Of a DNA stretch of 64,000 nt, positions 1 to 58,495 are shown in pieces. A model generated the notes under the pieces. The model was not told the origin of the DNA, searched no databases, and saw nothing but the letters and a program-made list of their open reading frames with translations. Location of the stretch: NCBI GenBank assembly GCA_964016885.1, contig OZ024747.1, forward strand, positions 23,312,001-23,376,000, written 5' to 3'. Position 1 is the stretch's first letter. Every line of letters starts with the position of its first letter. The translations under genes were made by a program, and so were the position numbers. Source of the DNA: Eledone cirrhosa. Its lineage: Eukaryota.

Positions 1-24030
<24,030 letters not shown>

Positions 24031-48062: not shown

Positions 48063-51000
48063 ATTCTAGAATAAAATAATTTCTTTATTACTACTACTGT
48101 TGTTGTTGCTGTTGTTGTTGTTGTTGTTGCAGCAACAACAACATATATTTACAATATATATTTTTTTAATTTGAATCTCTCTCTAAAACAACTTTTTTTT
48201 TTCAGTTATGTCTTATTAAAATTATGGTGGTGGTAGGGCCAGTGACTATATTTAGCGCCCTATGCTAGCCATACAATGTGCATGTTTAAGAGGTTCGCTT
48301 CGCAATCATTAGGTTCCATGTTCGATCCCACTGCGTGACATGCTGGGCAAGTGTAATTTATTATAGCGTTGTATCGACCCATGCCTTGTGGGTGAAACTG
48401 AATTGACAGAAACTGTTTGGAAGCTTGTCGGATAGACTGTACCTGTAATTCGGAGGGTCAGCCTCGTCACACCCTAGTCCCGCTGAATCTCCCCGAGAAT
48501 TACGTTATGGGCCCACGTGCCTGTGGAAAGCTCAAGCCAATCGTAAATTAATTTCACAAGCAGGCTGCTCTATTGATAAAAATAAACGAACACTCGTCGT
48601 CAAAACCGATGGAGGTCCATCAAGTTCCAACCTACACCGTCTCATCTGCCTCATAATCAAACAGCGCCGTGTAATTCAATTCGATGCTCACTTCGTCAAC
48701 CGGTACTCAAAAATGACGATGATGTTGCACTGCGTCTGAGCCTCCGTGTGTGTCACACATGTCCTAGTTGAGCTCTCTTTTCATCACGTCGCGATACTCT
48801 GAATGACGTATTTAAGAAGAGTCACGATGTAACCGGTTTATCGTCACAACTGGAGACGGTCGACTTTGATTGCAGAGAGGGTGGACGTTCAAATGGGACA
48901 ACCCTTTGCTCATTTGAGACGGGGAGGTAGCTCATCTAGGACATACCGTGTTGAAACATTTTCTTCAGTGCTAAACTCATCGCTTCGACCACAATTTCGG
49001 GCGCTGCTGTTGCAACGAAGAGGAGCGATATTGACTGGCCGATTCTATTTTGTGTCGTTTGCCATTGAGACTACGGGCGTACTTGATCCCTAGCTACCGT
49101 TTTTCTTTGTCAAATTGAGACAATGCCATCAAACCAAAGGAATTAGCCCTGTGAGGTTGAATGACTGATACATCGGCTATTTTCAGCGGCAAAGCTTTCG
49201 TCATCTGGTCCTTGGGTGCAGCTGAAATACGGTTACTATCCAACAGAGTGTAGAGTTTTCCCCCTTCCACATCACGTCCTTTTCCTTTCAATTGTGTTAC
49301 TAAAGTATAATGGTTTCTAATTTAGGCACAAGACCAGCTGGTTGGGGCAGGGGAAAATCGACTACATTGACACAATACTTGACTGATACTATATTTCATC
49401 GATCATGTATGGATGATAGGCAAAGTTGACCTCGGCTAGATTTGAACTTAGAACGTAAAGGGCAGTAACTAAATGCCACAGAACATTTTGTTCGACGCTC
49501 TAATGATTCTGCTAATCCACCGCCCTTTACTGGAGTATAAGGTTTAAGAATACGAATAGATTTGTGTGCATTCTATTGAAATAAGGTTTGTGGTAGAGCC
49601 TGTAGCAGTGGAGACTTCCGGTGTTTTTGGCTTTCGGATCTCATCCATGCTCATTGCTATTGGAGCGGAGTTAGCTGCCCGTAGGTGCGAGCCCCGCGAG
49701 ATGGAGTGACTGTTCCAGCGTTTTTCCCTCGCCATCCTCCGCGGTAATGTCTTCTCCATCCTGTCGGCCGGGACCAAGAGGCGGATGACATATTAAAGAA
49801 CATGATTTCTACCATTAACTTTACACTTGCTGTTAGTTGCCTTTTATACTCTCTCTTTCTATATACATATATATATATATGAGCTCCGGTCGTTTTGACA
49901 GCTAGATCCGAACAGTTCGAATCTAGTTGTCGAAACGGCCGGAGAATCGAGTACTCTGGTACGTTATGGCCCACCTGGTATCTTACCACACCTTCTTTGC
50001 TATATATATATATATAACTCCCTTTGTTTGTACTTTATCTCTTTAATTATATCCCCCTCTCTCTATATAGTCAATACCTTTTCCCTGCCTTCAACTCTTG
50101 CTTGTCAGCACAACTCGTTCTTGATGTGTAGTATCATTCCTTTACTGAATTAAAAAAAGAATCAGTGACACGGGCCCGGGTGAACTTTATTCACGTTTGT
50201 ATAAATACCATTACAAATTGTTCACATTCTTTCAGAATGAAAATATAAACAGACCGAGAGTTTGTTGTTTAGCCCAAAGTCAGCCGTTATTAACCTACGA
50301 TCAAAGGGAGTTCCAGACGTGACCATCTTTTCTTTTCAGATATAGTATATCTTTGATTTGAACGAGATTTGGCTACTATTTCTTGTAGGTCAAATAACCA
50401 TAGAAGGACTCCCCCTTTTTGGCACGGAGGAAGTCAGAAGTTTTCTGGTATAGTAGACCTATGATTAGTTTTCCAACTGTAAACATTCCGTCTTATTTTT
50501 CGCAGTAGTGTATGTAGAACTACATTCAATTCATATCTATTTTAAACATACTAAGTTATAATTTAAGGACGATTTAGCTGCAATTTTTAGTAGTTTCAGC
50601 GACCGTATAGAGATTCCCTCGCTGTTTCTTTTAAAATGTTTTGTTGTTATTTAATCCTAGGTCCACCTTGATCAAAGGCATTCTAGTCGTGACTGTCAAC
50701 TTTTGGGGGTATATACGACTATATGCATCTTTCCATGCTTGAAAACTGGGTGCTTTTGAGGGAGATTCGGCATCTATTTCTAACGGGACAATCGACCAGG
50801 TAGAGGCACTCCTGTTCAGTAAACGTGAAAGACGCATAGAAATGGAAGAGTTGAGACGGAAAAATGAATATATATATATATACAATGTAAGGTTGCGAGT
50901 AGGTGCCGGGGAAACCGACCGCTCACGGTTATATCTAATCGACCCGTGTGGTTGCAGGGGATGTGGGTATGGTGTGGCGTGTGGTGGCCGGGGGAAGTGG

Positions 51001-51288
51001 GGGGGGACTCGACCGGAAGGGGTCTTTGACCGGAAGGATGCTCGACCGGAAGGGCCAGGAGAGGGCCTCTCTCTAGTGGTGACCAGCATACGGTGAGGAC
51101 GCGTTTTGGGCAGGTCCCGGTGTTAAGCAGTCGGACGCACGTGGAAGAGGAGTACCTGCAGTGGAATTTAGCGGCGCCTGTGAAAAGCGGTAAGTGAGAT
51201 AGCTTTTTCTAACCACAAGCTATTTCGGCGACTAAAAAAAAAAAAAAAAAAAAAGAAAGAAAACACTTGCCGCAAAACAAATCAGAAG

Positions 51289-52047
51289 ATGGCGACAAGA
51301 CTACGGATGAACGAAGCTATCAGGCCATTCACCGGGGAAGGTGATGTCGCTTGGCTGCGGAAGGTTCGGCTGGTCGCGGGCTTGCAGAAGATAGAAGACG
51401 TGGCCGGTCTCATTGCATTGTACCTCGAGGGCGACGCGTTGGTACTCTTCCTTGAGTTGGACGAGCACAGCCAAAGAGATGTGCAGAAGATTGAGAGGCG
51501 TCTGATGGATGCATTCGCCGAGGGACCGTTGGCGGCTTTTGCTAAGCTGGAGAGAATCAGGTGGAATGGTGAGCGCGTCGACATTTTCGCAGCGGAAATA
51601 AGGCGGTTGGCTATGTTGGCGGGTTACCAGGCGGAATGCGAACGCACGGTGCGGTTGGCATTCATCAATGGATTTCCGGACGACATAGCGGTGAAACTGC
51701 AGCAAGTTCCGGGGTACAAAGAGATGGAAATGCGTTCACTGGTGGAACAAGCCCGGATCATAGCGGAAGATGCCAAAAAGAGTGTCGCGGCGATAGCGAC
51801 TACGGAGGCTCAGGACACCTGGCAGCGAAATGGTCAAAGGGAGGCAACCTCGGCACGCGGCCGTTCGCGAGAATTTAAGGGCCGCTGTTTTAGGTGTCAT
51901 GGCCCGCATATGGCTAGAGACTGTAGAGAGTCGAAGCCGGATATAATTTGCTACCGGTGTAAGCGACCAGGCCACATCGGTACTAACTGCGACCAGGGAA
52001 ATGGTCCAAGGGGAACTACTGCGCCGGTAGTTGCCCCTTACGAGTAG
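51289..52047 (+). CDS. gag: Gypsy Gag with two zinc knuckles
   Basis: Intact 252-aa ORF; CFRCHGPHMARDC and CYRCKRPGHIGTNC. Confidence 0.85.
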   Translation: MATRLRMNEAIRPFTGEGDVAWLRKVRLVAGLQKIEDVAGLIALYLEGDALVLFLELDEHSQRDVQKIERRLMDAFAEGPLAAFAKLERIRWNGERVDIFAAEIRRLAMLAGYQAECERTVRLAFINGFPDDIAVKLQQVPGYKEMEMRSLVEQARIIAEDAKKSVAAIATTEAQDTWQRNGQREATSARGRSREFKGRCFRCHGPHMARDCRESKPDIICYRCKRPGHIGTNCDQGNGPRGTTAPVVAPYE

Positions 52048-54820
52048 CGGCGCTGCCCGTGGTGGAAGTCTTCGTGAGGGGGAAGCCACAGCGAGCCCTC
52101 GTGGATACGGGTTGTACGACGACACTGGTGACCGCGGGGGTGGCGCAGAGGTGGGGAGGGAAGAGCAGCGTAAGGGATGTCGACGGCAGGAAAATTGAAT
52201 GCCGAGGTCGCAGCGAGATGGAAATAGCGGTACGGGGAAGGACGATAAGGCTTTCCGCCATCGTGGTAGACAGTGTGGTGGATGGGATCGGCGTGGTTAT
52301 GGGCATGGACGCGATTGGCCGTCTAGGGGGCGTCACGGTGAACAATGTCGGTGTGTCGTTTGGCGCCGCTGCATCGGTATGCGCTGTGAGTGCACGTCAT
52401 GAGAACCAGAAGGCCCACGAGGAGCAATACCCCGCTTACACTGTACAGGACAAGGACTTCAAGGCCGTGTTTGATGGGCAGCGATGGGTTGTTGAGTGGT
52501 ACTGGAAGGGAGAACCACCAACACTGAAGACCAAAGTGGGCTGCTATCAACACACATTGAAGGGAAACGCTAGGGGCGAGAAGTAGAGAGATGGATCGAA
52601 GAGGGCATACTGCTTCCCTGGAAGGAGGAGGTGAAGTGCGGAGTATTGCCGTTGATGGCGGTGGTGCAACCCACGAAGAGCAAGGTGAGGCCGGTGCTGG
52701 ACTATCGAGAGCTGAACGAGCACGTGTCATTCCACACGGGTGGCGAGGTCACGGATGTCTGTGGGGAAACCCTGCGTGAGTGGAGACGCATGACGGGGGG
52801 TTCAGCGATCGTGGATCTAAAGTCGGCTTACTTGCAGTTGCATATAGATGAGAAGCTCTGGCGGTATCAGCTGGTCAGGTATAAGGGCCGGACATATTGC
52901 ATGACCAGGCTCGGTTTCGGGCTGAGCTCCGCACCGAAGATCATGGCGGCGGTCCTCAAGACCGCTCTGGGGAGGGCCGACAAGATAAAGAGGGCTACTA
53001 ACTCCTACATTGACGACATCCTAGTGGACGAGTCGGTGGTGTCGACGGCGGAGGTCACGAGCCATTTGCGGAAGTATGGACTGACTGCGAAGCCATCAGA
53101 AGCATTGGAGGGAGGAGCTGCGCTGGGAATATGGCTACGGCGAGATAAGACGGGCGTTTTGGTGTTCCAGAGGGGAAACGAAGTTCCGGAACTGGGCCCA
53201 AGTATGAATAGGCGGGAGCTTTTCTCGGTGTGTGGAAAGCTGGTGGGTCACTACCCGATCGCTGGGTGGCTCCGGACGGCATGCAGCTATGTCAAGAGAC
53301 GAGCGGGAGGGGTGACTTGGAGTGACAGAGTGGGAGAGAGAACGGTGGCCATGATGCAGGAGATCGTGGGGAGGGTGAAGGCCGACGACCCAGTGCGGGG
53401 ACGCTGGTATGTTCCCAAATCACGGAGCGGGACCGTATGGTGCGATGCCAACAGCATAGCGCTGGGTGTCACGTTGGAGATAGGTGTTGAGGTCGAGGAT
53501 GCAGCCTGGCTTAGAAAGAAGGACGACTGCAGCCACATCAATGTGGCCGAGCTGGACGCGGTGTTGAGAGGGGTGAATCTCGCCCTGCGGTGGGGGCTGC
53601 GCACCATCGAGATACGCACCGACTCGGCTACCGTACTCGGATGGGTAAGATCAGTGCTCACCAATGAGAAGAGAGTGCGAACGAGAGGCGCGGCGGAGAT
53701 GCTGATAAAGCGCCGCCTGTGAACGTTAGGAGAGCTGGCCACCGAGTTCGACCTGAAGCTGAGCGTAGTGTTCGTGCCTTCAGAGAAAAATAGGGCGGAC
53801 ATCTTAACTAGAGTGAAGAAAGCCTGGATGGAAGCGCCGGAGGAGGTAGAGGATGAGATAGCTGCCGTGTGTCGGCTGACCGAGTTAGACCTGAAGGGGT
53901 TGCATGACATGCACCACATGGGGGTGGATAGGAGCCTGTTCCTAGCCAGGAGAATCGACTCGGACGTTAGCAGACACAGTGTTCGGGGGGTCGTTAGAGG
54001 CTGCGTCCGATGTCAGTCCATTGATCCCGCCCCGGGTGTACACGAAACGGGAAGCCTCCCGGTGGATCGCGACTGGAAGCGATTAGCGGTGGATGTGACG
54101 CACTACCGGCAGGGAACGTACCTCTCGATGGTCGACTGTGGACCAGGTCGAGTGGCGATATGGAGGGAGATGTAGACTGGAACGGCCGAGGAAATCGTGC
54201 GGACGTTGAGAGAGGTGTTCTTGGAGCGGGGCCCTGTGGATGAACTGCTGATGGACAACAGCGCAGCGTTCCGCTCGGAGGCACTGAGGGGGATGCTCGA
54301 GGGATGGAAGGTGGACCGTTTCTTCAGAGCGGCGCACAGGCCGAGCGGGAATGGAATCGTGGAGCGACACCACCGGACGATCAAGGCAATGGCGGAGCGG
54401 GGCCATATCTCACCAATGGAGGCAGTGTTCTGGTACAATATGTCCCCTCGGGTTGGACAGGTCGAGGAATCGGTGCCACACAGAGCAGTATTCAAATACG
54501 AGTGGCGGCACCCGTGCACGTCACCACAACGGCCAGTGGGGAGAGAGAGTGCATTCGTGCAGGTGGGCGAAGAAGTCTGGGTTAAGCCCCCAGATGCACG
54601 GTGCACATCTCAATGGGGAAGGGGAACGGTGACGACCGTAAATTCAAAGAACAATGTGTCCGTGGACGGGGTACCACGTCATGTCCTGGATGTAAGAAGA
54701 ATCACTGTATCGACGGACTCCGAGGAAGAGGAAACCCAAGATGAGGTGGAAACCCAGAGCCCTGCCCCAATACTACGAAGTCGTAGACCACCGACATGGA
54801 CGGCAGACTTTCATATGTAG
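52003..54820 (+). pseudogene. pol: Gypsy Pol (protease, RT, RNase H, integrase), disrupted
   Basis: ALVDTGC, DLKSAYLQ, YIDD, WCDANS, HHCC and D-D-E (VDVTH/MDNS/GIVER); frameshift near 52585; stops at 53720 and 54173. Confidence 0.9.
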
Positions 54821-55293
54821 AGGGACGAGGGGGAAATTGATCCTTGAGATCAGGGGGGCGTGTGGGTATGGTGTGGCGTGTGGTGGCCGGGGGGGGGGGG
54901 GGTGATCGACCGGAAGTGGTCTTTGACCGGAAGGATGCTCGACCGGAAGGGCCAGGAGAGGGCCTCTCTCTAGTGGTGACCAGCATACGGTGAGGACGCG
55001 TTTTGGGCAGGTCCCGGTGTTAAGCAGTCGGACGCACGTGGAAGAGGAGTACCTGCAGTGGAATTTAGCGGCGCCTGTGAAAAGCGGTAAGTGAGATAGC
55101 TTTTTCTAACCACAGGGGAATCCAGCCGACGACGACGCCCGAACGGCGAAGTGGTGTAGCTTCGCCGACGACACGCCGCCTTCTATCTCTCTAGCCATTC
55201 AAGGCCCCGCATCGACAGCGGGACCGAAGCCAACCCGCCGTCTAGGCGGTTCCGCACCCTTTTACTAGTGAGGGAACAGAGTAAAGAGAGAAG

Positions 55294-56667
55294 GGCGATA
55301 TCCAATTTTAGCGGCCTAAATGCCGCTTACTTGCTGTAGTTGCTGCTTACTTCAATGTATGAGGCTATTCCAACAAATTTACATTCCCCTTTTTTTAGCC
55401 GTTAAAAGAAATATAGATTTATTTATTGTTTTTTTTTTTTGCGATTTATTTGCCACTGGGGCATATATTTCTTTATTTGCCCCTTTTTTGTTTGTTTGTT
55501 TTTTTGCGATTTATTAGCCTTTTGGGGTCACACACACCCCCGTAGAAAGTGTGCGACCTTTCTGCGAGGGGACACAGAGAGAGGGGGGTGCTCCCTTTTT
55601 CTCTTACCTGTACAAGCCGATATAGAGAGATGGCCCACTTACACGGGCCATTATTGCTACTTTCACCCATCTTTCATGGAATTGGCTGGGACTGAGTGCC
55701 TTTTTATCCACCTTGATCCTTCTTTCGAAGTGGTATCGGAAGAAGAGGACCATTTGTTGGCCGGTGACATATCCCCAGTTTCCTCGCTGCAAACGCATCT
55801 GGGACATTTCTTTTCCAAGGGGTTTCAGTCTCGGAATCCGTGTCTGTAGAGCCTTTCCCGAACGGGCAGGGCCCCTCGGTATAATAGTAAGTATTAGTGG
55901 TTGTAATAAAAATGCAATCAAAATGTAATAAATACCTTCACTGATTTCTTTCCTTATATTATCAACAGAAGTTGGTATGTCACCCAAAGTTCGCTTTGTA
56001 TGTTCCCGAATAGCAGTGAATTTTGATAAAACTGTTTCTAATTCCTTCTCCACAGTAAGACAAATATCCATGTGTAGTTGAAGAGGATAAGTATGAAAGA
56101 ACAGTCATTTAAATTTACAGATGGACAGATGTGGGTTTGAGATATATAGAAAAATAATTATTTACAGAAAAAGAAAATAATAATAAAGAATTATTATAAT
56201 TTTTTTAAAGATTTATATCTTTTTGGACTACACATGGATATTTGTCTTAGGTGGAGAAAAAGGCACTCAGTCCCAGCCAATTCCATGAAAGATGGGTGAA
56301 AGTAGCAATAATGGCACGTGTAAGTGGGCCATCTCTCTATATCGGCTTGTACAGGTAAGAGAAGAAGGGGGCACCCCCCTCTCTCTGTGCTCCGTGGCAG
56401 AAAGGTCGCACACTTTCTACGGGGGTGTGTGTGACCCCAAAAGGCTAATAAATCGCAAAAAAACAAACAAACAAAAAAAGGGCAAATAAAGAAATATATG
56501 CCCCAGTGGCAAATAAATCGCAAAAAAAAAAAACAATAAATAAATCTATATTTCTTTTAACGGCTAAAATAGGGGAATGTAAATTTGTTGGAATAGCCTC
56601 ATACATTGAAGTAAGCAGCAACTACAGCAAGTAAGCGGCATTTAGGCCGCTAAAATTGGATATCGCC
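55294..56667. mobile_element. Non-autonomous long-TIR DNA transposon (Merlin- or MULE-like) carrying a host gene fragment
   Basis: ~420-bp TIRs at 55294-55713 and 56249-56667 beginning GGCGATATCC; 8-bp TSD gagagaag (55286-93, 56668-75). Confidence 0.9.
55936..56071 (-). pseudogene. RMND5: Captured first coding exon of an RMND5/Gid2 (CTLH E3 ligase subunit) homolog
   Basis: MDICLTVEKELETVLSKF...IRKEISE resembles the RMND5 N-terminus (MDQCVTVERELEKVLHKF, recalled); ends at a GAAG|gtattt donor; no further exons seen in the window. Confidence 0.75.
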
Positions 56668-58495
56668 GAGAGAAGACAAGCTGACATTCAGAAGTAATTT
56701 ATGAACGATCGACAAACGAAAATTTATTTCACTTGTCGCGCTGAATAATTAATTGGTTAGTTATAATTTGGGAGTAACGATTAATAATAGTTTACAAATA
56801 ATTGTTTCTACTTTTGGCACCAGGCCAGCAATTACCCAGTACATTACTGGTACTTTATTTTATCGACCCCGTAAGGATGAAAGGCAAAGTTAACCTCGGC
56901 GGGTACAAATAATCTATTATTTGTAGGTAATTATTAAACTTTGCTTGTAAAATATAAAAATAAAACATAAAAGTTCTGATTTAAATTGTTTACAAATAAT
57001 AATAATTATAATAATTTATCGGAGATATTAAAATTTCAATCTCAGCACTTAACTTGTTCGTATAAACAGGTTGTTTTTAAACTCTTAATATCTTGTAATA
57101 ATTTAGCAGAAAATATATAAAATCGGTCTTGTTAAATCAAATGTTTATAGTATCTCTACTAGTGAAAAGAAAATTGTGAAAATTTGCAGTTTTAGAGTAA
57201 AGATTTTAATATTTATTATGACGCAGTCATAATACTTTTTTTATACTTTTCAAGAATGTTTTGCTAATGCGACTTCAAGTGGTACAGGACGTTTGCATTG
57301 TTTGCTTGAACAGGAAAATAACTCGGAACTTGTGAATTTACTTAAATCACCCCGCCGCTAATAGCTTTTAACTGCCCCTTTTAACTGCTAATAGCTATTA
57401 ACTGCCCCTTCCTCGCGGAAATTCCGTGGTTTAATTAGAAACATGTATTAAAGACCAATGTGACATTGTAAATGTTTTATTTATAAGTTATATATATAGA
57501 AAGATAGATATATTTCTTTATTTATATATATTTCTTTATTTATATATAGAAAGATAGATATGTATTAAAGACCAATGTGACGTTGTAAATGTTTTATTTA
57601 TAAGTTATATATATATATATTTATAGAGAGAGAGAGAGATAGATAGATAGATAGATGACACACCACATACAAACAATATAATTGTGTTCGGGATTAGAAA
57701 AACAAATCGCACGCACATTCTTACCATCCTATTAAGACGTAGTAATATATATTTACTGTGAGTATTTTTCATATTTCTTACATATTACTGCTGCTTGTTT
57801 TGATATCGGAGTTGTAGTAGTTGTACATGTTTGTTTAACCATGAGCTATTATAGTCGACCAGCTAGTTCGATGAGAAGTCATGAAAACAACCTGGACAGC
57901 AAAATGTGGTAATTCAAATTGAAGACAATGCACAGTTGATATATTAAAAAGCAAACCAGGTCAGTTATAACTACCACGAAAACTTGAATATGTATTTATT
58001 TAGTTAGGTAGTTGGTTATTTTCTTAAACAAATATTTCTACCATATTGCAGATTAACATGCATTAATTTTTCCAGCGAAGGTATGAATTTATTTAAGGTC
58101 TTTATGAATTTATTCGACAACAAATATTTGTTAGGTTATATTTCGGCCTATGGATTCAAAACTGGGATGGTAGAGAGAGAGGGGGTGTTGGACACTCCCT
58201 CCAATACCAAGTACACCTTACGCTTAGTTAGTTTATGTTTCTCCTTTCTTTATTCTATCGCTCCTTTATATCTACTATTCACACTTATCCATTTCAATCT
58301 CCCTCCGTCCTTTTCTCTGCATTTTTACACATACACACAAATAAACTGTTTCTTTATAAATGTTCAGTAAATATTGGTTATTTGTTTTTTTTTGTAATTG
58401 CTGAATAAAGCGCGACGCACACACACATATATAAATCAGAGTCTGGAACTAGCTGTTGAAACGGCAAGAGCTCAACCGTCGGGTCCCGACTCGTT

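Follow-up and report, generated by a model that had tools for sequence, protein, structure and literature searches.

The 1374-bp element at positions 55294-56667 of the window (the whole stretch of 64,000 nucleotides analyzed here) is, with high confidence on our part, a non-coding deletion derivative of a Merlin transposon family that carries exon 1 of the host gene RMND5 together with a LINE tail, traveling as a selfish passenger and accompanied by two likely side effects of the family as a whole. The Merlin carrier and the capture of RMND5 are firm. Judged by its ends, its target duplication and the transposase of its relatives, we class the element as a Merlin that appears to work like an animal Pack-TIR, and the original prediction of a young, multicopy Pack-type element is borne out by the presence of the family at 85 or more sites with a mean pairwise distance of 1.3%. 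The element is flanked by exact 8-bp repeats GAGAGAAG, as had been predicted, and is composed as follows.

55286..55293, no strand: left 8-bp target site duplication GAGAGAAG, with an exact copy at 56668-56675
55294..55515, plus strand: left Merlin end, comprising the GGCGATATCC terminus along with subterminal sequence and A/T-rich repeats, the whole mirroring the right end of the family
55516..55887, minus strand: remnant of the 3' part of an L1/Tx1-like LINE, matching LINE copies of the genome at ~72-84%
55888..55935, minus strand: first 48 bp of RMND5 intron 1 with GT donor intact, from alignment to the parent (L039)
55936..56071, minus strand: RMND5 exon 1, the captured coding portion running from the ATG as far as the donor (45 codons plus 1 base), from its match to the parent
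56072..56214, minus strand: sequence upstream of the RMND5 ATG, with two small deletions, a region covered by contigs of the spliced run X4
56215..56229, minus strand: Merlin sequence, located 3' of the transposase in coding relatives, from the junctions of L080 vs. L002
56227..56249, plus strand: what remains of a second RMND5 exon copy in inverted orientation, comprising the ATG and the first codons, from comparison with relatives
56249..56667, plus strand: right arm, consisting of the LINE 3' remnant (~56249-56445) and then the Merlin right end, from comparison with relatives
56668..56675, no strand: right 8-bp target site duplication, matching 55286-55293

The original prediction had read the outer parts as GG-initial TIRs of ~420 bp. 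Arms of this length are present (55294-55713, 420 bp, and 56249-56667, 419 bp), both beginning with GGCGATATCC and 97.4% complementary over 420 bp, but window 55516-55887 is LINE-derived, the arms being partly cargo, with 55516-55713 falling within the "420-bp TIR". Only the first ~55 bp of 55294..55515 resemble the short left end of L101, an asymmetric relative bearing a transposase (74%). Based on this composition, we read the "420-bp TIR" as a mirrored right arm, about half of it LINE cargo, rather than as a true TIR. In the same vein, the 23-nt inverted copy noted at 56227-56249 is present, but as the remnant of a deleted second arm and not as a separate feature, with ~345 bp of the right arm of this copy deleted between look-alike GTGGAGAA stretches and the 23-nt stump left behind. 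The fold-back centre at 56215..56229 is joined at a 3-bp ACT microhomology, as judged by the L080 and L002 junctions. Consistent with the original prediction, no transposase was recognized inside this 1374-bp copy. The sequence 56072..56214 is likely the RMND5 5' UTR. Using the left-flank repeat as a probe, we found no empty insertion site for this copy; since this repeat ends at 55259, the insertion lies outside of it.

The surroundings of the element hold other repeats. A GC-rich element at 50962-55259, probably an LTR retroelement, contains three long frames as well as a pair of direct repeats (50962-51217 and 54861-55114, 97.7%); its end has 46 genome matches, and the Merlin copy lies 34 bp beyond. 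Further away, long stretches at ~4000-8000 and 18700-22000 display strong G/T skew, the second being a tandem array with 9-15-bp periods, and a pair of 339-bp inverted repeats (8766-9104 and 11024-11362, 86% complementary, 1.9 kb apart) is perhaps another, older TIR element.

The minus-strand ATG at 56071 opens 45 codons ending at the GT donor at 55935, thus delimiting the 136-bp exon. By itself, the 45-residue peptide gave a weak match to residues 1-42 of human RMND5A (E 0.036, the top match among 4 listed PDB sequences), with no Pfam family and, among longer proteins, no match (9 candidates, none scored, which is weak evidence). A search of the genome for CTLH domains yielded 7 matches in four regions, one of which reads as RMND5; three other CTLH-domain genes (L031, L033 and L036) are located on C6, C12 and C2. 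The RMND5-like region is a multi-exon gene on G000:C5, the exon 1 of which shares 39 of 45 amino acids and 130 of 136 bases with the element exon, and because exon 1 and three later exons of this gene match human RMND5A (E 5e-4, 1e-12, 3e-16 and 2e-21), the predicted ATG-to-donor exon is indeed that of RMND5. The search for a parental locus and for other copies, suggested with the original prediction, returned both: the element matches a single place in the 120 kb around RMND5 (L039:6166-6519), and 83 genome matches were found with an exact 28-mer. As the 120 kb contain only the shared piece and short A/T-rich matches, the parent lies outside any element. One contig of run X4 joins parent exons 1, 2 and 3, confirming the donor. 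The captured piece comprises ~150 bp upstream of the ATG, the 136-bp coding exon and part of intron 1, with 48 bp of the intron in this copy and 89 bp in longer relatives; the presence of 48-89 bp of intron supports capture from unspliced sequence. The exon differs from that of the parent by six substitutions, all non-synonymous (P 0.23 under neutrality). At window position 56074, three bases before the RMND5 ATG, the element copies aligned all have C in place of the parent's A, a change which, as gauged by the Kozak rule for start context, would weaken the RMND5 start. A second candidate donor, L131 on C1, is 97% like the element and was rejected, as no other RMND5 exon occurs within 70 kb and the locus is a solo fragment.

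The size of the family was assessed in several ways. With the 535-bp interior as query, we obtained 72 matches from 40 scored candidates; the 1292 candidates of this search do not represent a copy number, while the element-specific 28-mer had 83 exact matches in the genome vs. none for the control. Pooling of the fetched loci gave 86 clustered sites, or 85 after one exon-less row was dropped, and we thus put the number of sites at 85 or more. The contig depth in the DNA runs, 641-799 on the element exon vs. 3-10 on unique contigs, is not a copy number and agrees roughly with a multicopy state. Of the 30 loci fetched, the majority form near-perfect palindromes ~1.72 kb long, in which both arms (~800 bp) contain the exon. 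The arms do recur elsewhere as paired termini, which the original prediction had proposed to check: among 49 two-ended elements, the 8-bp duplication is exact in 32 and has one mismatch in 9 more, with none longer than 8 bp (8 of the 32 exact duplications stem from a single nested insertion, and the set includes a few short neighbors with the same ends). All six element letters are common to 73 of 74 full-length exon copies, and the mean pairwise distance is 1.3% between exon copies vs. 5.1% to the parent, a pattern indicative of a single capture followed, after a long stem, by a recent burst. Codon changes among the copies (16 synonymous vs. 53 non-synonymous, with 21% of sites synonymous) match the expectation for drift and indicate that the exon drifts neutrally; on this codon evidence, the captured exon is free of protein selection.

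Besides the palindromes, the family includes several other forms. Deletion of the interval separating two ACT trinucleotides in an L080-like element accounts for the 1.72-kb form. A 4.7-kb member (L174:1338-6051) has ~3 kb of unidentified DNA separating two RMND5 arms; deletion forms of 1.0-1.1 kb (L181, L183, L184, L185 and L022) have one exon copy and exact 8-bp duplications; a solo RMND5-exon-plus-LINE fragment at L156:3606-4697 has no Merlin ends and is split by a short repeat that has a duplication of its own; and a 681-bp Merlin derivative at L243:5381-6061 has the older end type and only the LINE tail.

The original prediction had left open whether the carrier is a Merlin or a Mutator, and our data favor the former. 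The terminal 5'-GG of Merlin is found at both ends as GGCGATATCC, and the duplication, 8 or 9 bp in Merlin, is exactly 8 bp in this copy. Relatives with the same ends and cargo enclose a PF12762 (DDE_Tnp_IS1595) transposase, scoring 46 bits vs. a cut-off of 27, with D/D/E blocks present. Mutator and Foldback elements are marked by a MULE transposase and a 9-11-bp duplication. That the long arms are the true TIRs of a Mutator/Foldback-type element could be argued from the resemblance of G-initial long arms with internal sub-repeats to FB4 as described in PMC8277862; this reading seems to us hardly credible given that 1) the same-ended relatives enclose a DDE_Tnp_IS1595 transposase; 2) the duplications are 8 bp and not 9-10; 3) the arms contain LINE and host sequence.

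Within the close transposase family, RMND5 sequence is kept 3' of the transposase and in the same sense at 16 of 18 sites, the remaining 2 lacking that side; the 30 best matches for a Merlin transposase belong mostly to other families, with these ends in 2 of 30. An autonomous partner, sought as the original prediction had advised, was found only in part: same-ended relatives with transposase exist, but none of the 15 loci tested has an intact frame, the longest one from the start codon being 283 residues (40 of 203 candidates scored). L101 and L102 are organized asymmetrically, in the order of short left end, promoter region, transposase, RMND5 piece, LINE tail and right end, a plan that is likely the older one on structural grounds. 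In other copies the left end is replaced by a mirrored right arm with varied breakpoints, to the point that the whole transposase is mirrored in L085. A sister Merlin without cargo (L118, 71% identity) has doubled its arms likewise, and no cargo-free copy of the same Merlin family, i.e. no pre-capture state, was seen in our searches. Three other Merlins with unrelated ends (L083:3117-5628, L084:3152-5102 and L086:2937-4840) have the transposase doubled head to head. Fold-back seems to be common among the Merlins of this genome. As for the LINE tail, 55516..55887 corresponds to the ORF2 C-terminus and 3' UTR, deleted internally and in the same sense as the RMND5 exon; its source LINE is high-copy in the genome, with zf-RVT over cut-off in the longer form in L101 and RVT_1 in the LINE L147. 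A short GACAT/ATAT overlap marks the point where the LINE 3' end meets the RMND5 intron piece, both being in the same sense.

We postulate that the element arose in steps. In a single event, ~390 bp of RMND5 would have entered a transposase-coding Merlin immediately downstream of the transposase stop codon; this structure is what we see, and template switching in the course of gap repair is its probable mechanism. The 3' end of a LINE would then have been placed beside the RMND5 piece, an adjacency that is observed and the timing of which is our surmise. As several independent forms show, a mirrored right arm took the place of the left end on repeated occasions, bringing the exon into both arms. 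Two deletions, both read from their junctions, would complete the series: loss of the transposase at the ACT microhomology, giving the widespread 1.72-kb palindrome, and removal of another ~345 bp, giving the 1374-bp copy. The mover of this copy was likely the family's own transposase, with its present activity putative.

How the RMND5 piece entered the Merlin has to be weighed between two routes. Capture at the level of DNA, as originally predicted, has the retained intron 1 in its favor, but the fusion of the LINE 3' end in the same sense makes an RNA-level route possible as well. In the latter, RMND5 would have come in as RNA, with the LINE reverse transcriptase switching onto nascent RMND5 pre-mRNA and the resulting chimera inserting into the Merlin, a scenario to which the direct, same-sense LINE-intron fusion with its GACAT/ATAT overlap and the start of the captured piece inside the transcribed upstream part both lend themselves. 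Against it stands the LINE-free form nested in a hAT element (see below), whose intron piece breaks off at the identical base and is followed immediately by the A-rich end of the Merlin; this arrangement fits a later LINE insertion better than a precise loss of the LINE. In addition, no target duplication was found by eye around the RMND5-LINE unit. From these junctions, we favor DNA-level capture with later LINE insertion as the probable course and regard the RNA route as unlikely.

The first side effect, which we deem likely, is that palindromic copies give rise to read-through RNA that folds back on itself and undergoes A-to-I editing. The read-through hairpin with RMND5 that had been predicted fits the 1.7-kb sister palindromes but not this copy, where the loop contains the exon and no more than 23 nt of RMND5 belong to the long stem. 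All RNA evidence consists of assembled contigs of one run (X4), taken as RNA solely because one contig joins three parent exons, the run not being on record as RNA. This run has a 155-nt contig (depth 2.3) antisense to the exon, in which all 9 visible changes are A>G (3 listed in the aligned part and 6 in a 30-letter loose end), the 9 excluding 7 of the 10 aligned differences of the contig. The 3 listed changes are absent from DNA run X1, no fetched copy among 216 redundant genomic alignments has more than 1 of the 9 A>G sites, and the A>G-changed motif is absent from the genome. Clustered A-to-G changes are described as a mark of edited long double-stranded RNA, mostly of young repeats (PMC9989829). 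We surmise from this pattern that the antisense contig probably reflects edited fold-back double-stranded RNA; as the stretch lies in the loop of this copy, its source is likely a full palindrome or sense-antisense pairing. Whether the palindromes might be kept for regulating RMND5, with hairpin RNA giving rise to small RNAs that damp the parent mRNA, can be judged from the same data. The exon in the 1.72-kb stem shares identical runs of 39, 22, 21, 36 and 28 nt and 20 of 116 exon 21-mers with the parent, and the edited antisense contig is in keeping with such a role; nevertheless, the exon drifts neutrally, many copies, this one included, lack one arm, and hyper-editing of young repeats, general in animals according to PMC9989829, would reduce matching to the parent. 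We therefore hold a regulatory purpose to be improbable and retain the selfish passenger as our preferred explanation.

The second likely side effect involves another transposon, in that the transposase mRNA of a hAT element would receive a spliced leader from the exon and donor of a LINE-less sister palindrome inside that element. Two X4 contigs leave the RMND5 donor with loose ends, one of which corresponds to exon 2 of the parent; in the other, subtraction of exon 2 left a degenerate pattern that matched one sequence 6 times vs. none for the control, so that the hAT junction is deduced from a 30-letter mixed consensus and not read directly. The hAT acceptor and the parent sequence agree at 2 of 30 places, consistent with the reported agreement of 0.53. 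All 6 pattern matches fall on the splice acceptor of a hAT transposase gene, with a sense RMND5 donor upstream in 5 of 6, ~540 nt away in 4. Members of the hAT superfamily have a hAT transposase, short CA-initial TIRs and an 8-bp duplication. The composite found here measures 4.3-4.5 kb, has CAGTGGCGGATTTAA ends with the duplication exact in 4 of the 6 having both ends found, and codes for a transposase with DUF4371 and Dimer_Tnp_hAT over cut-off, with an 883-residue open frame in 2 of 12 copies examined. A LINE-free Merlin palindrome of ~1.3 kb is nested ~70 bp from the hAT 5' end, and its duplication GTAATTTG is the same in all 12 hAT copies examined. Since all 13 sites of this hAT adjoin the nested Merlin end, the hAT has spread as a composite; each of the 14 shorter hAT derivatives fetched keeps one Merlin end.

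Within the nested palindrome, nothing separates the Merlin promoter region from the RMND5 exon, which has an in-frame loss of 45 nt. Splicing to the hAT would give a 31-codon frame, a UGA, two codons and then the transposase ATG in the same frame, and promoter activity, translation and read-through of the nested piece are predictions from its structure. The X4 contig of the element-type exon is unbroken, whereas the hAT-borne exon has the 45-nt deletion, leaving more than one candidate for the copy that is spliced; that an element-type RMND5 exon is spliced to the hAT transposase message is nonetheless likely on the contig evidence. As a more tentative proposal, to which we would give less than an even chance, the host exon was relayed via Merlin and then hAT, with the mirrored derivative giving every hAT copy a promoter, first exon and donor; the in-frame leader before a single UGA would set transposase output and could, by read-through or editing, yield an RMND5-transposase fusion, while the palindromes would make edited double-stranded RNA matching the single RMND5 gene.

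These findings bear on how genes are captured and spread. TIR gene capture in animals has been reported mostly as single-copy and transposition-independent, whereas a single Merlin capture has here been amplified to at least 85 sites, and the full series of intermediates shows how cargo joins long inverted arms. If the exon was passed on to the mRNA of a hAT transposase, as is likely, this would be a concrete case of exon shuffling between transposons. In addition, the palindromes offer a natural test of gene-carrying hairpins silencing the parent vs. being neutralized by A-to-I editing.

We found no published gene-carrying Merlin, RMND5 capture or exon relay between transposons in the literature covered, which leaves aside the supplements of PMC8277862, most subscription papers and bioRxiv supplements. 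The Merlin superfamily, related to IS1016/IS1595 and described in PMC8101967, shares with our element the GG termini, the 8-bp duplication and a DDE_Tnp_IS1595 with D, D, E blocks. TIRs of 1000 bp are listed for Repbase Merlin-1_DR and Merlin-N5_DR (PMC8101967); no host-gene cargo was found described for Merlins there, while the long arms here are secondary, being derived from a cargo-laden right arm. Like Turmoil-1 of Caenorhabditis elegans (PMC2572040), the family here is a cut-and-paste animal transposon with host coding fragments and an intron in both long inverted repeats, around a transposase, but Turmoil-1 is a Harbinger and not a Merlin, 9 elements are listed for it vs. 85 or more sites here, and as described its donor site is mutated, without transcript evidence or hand-over to a second transposon. 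The element also resembles the animal Pack-TIRs and Ssk-FB4 of PMC8277862, with a host exon and its flanks in a TIR element distant from the parent, microhomology junctions, distinct target duplications and chimeric transcripts; the captured sequence is non-TE, the parent lies outside TEs and the copies are multiple with distinct target duplications, as for a Pack-TIR. Among 100 genomes, only 4 Pack-TIR cases (1.4%) were multicopy, the examples having few copies; the FB4 duplication is 9-10 bp, and the main text of that paper does not mention "Merlin" (PMC8277862). Its Pack-TIRs have their cargo between the TIRs, in contrast to the cargo here, which lies in a transposase-coding element and in both arms. 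Plant Pack-MULEs such as PM-ZIBP (PMC3310237) likewise have a gene fragment amplified by non-autonomous derivatives, and the acquired sequence can join their extended TIRs (PMC3310237); unlike our family, PM-ZIBP is a plant Mutator with 14 copies in which the TIRs are in tandem (PMC3310237), whereas here a whole arm has folded back.
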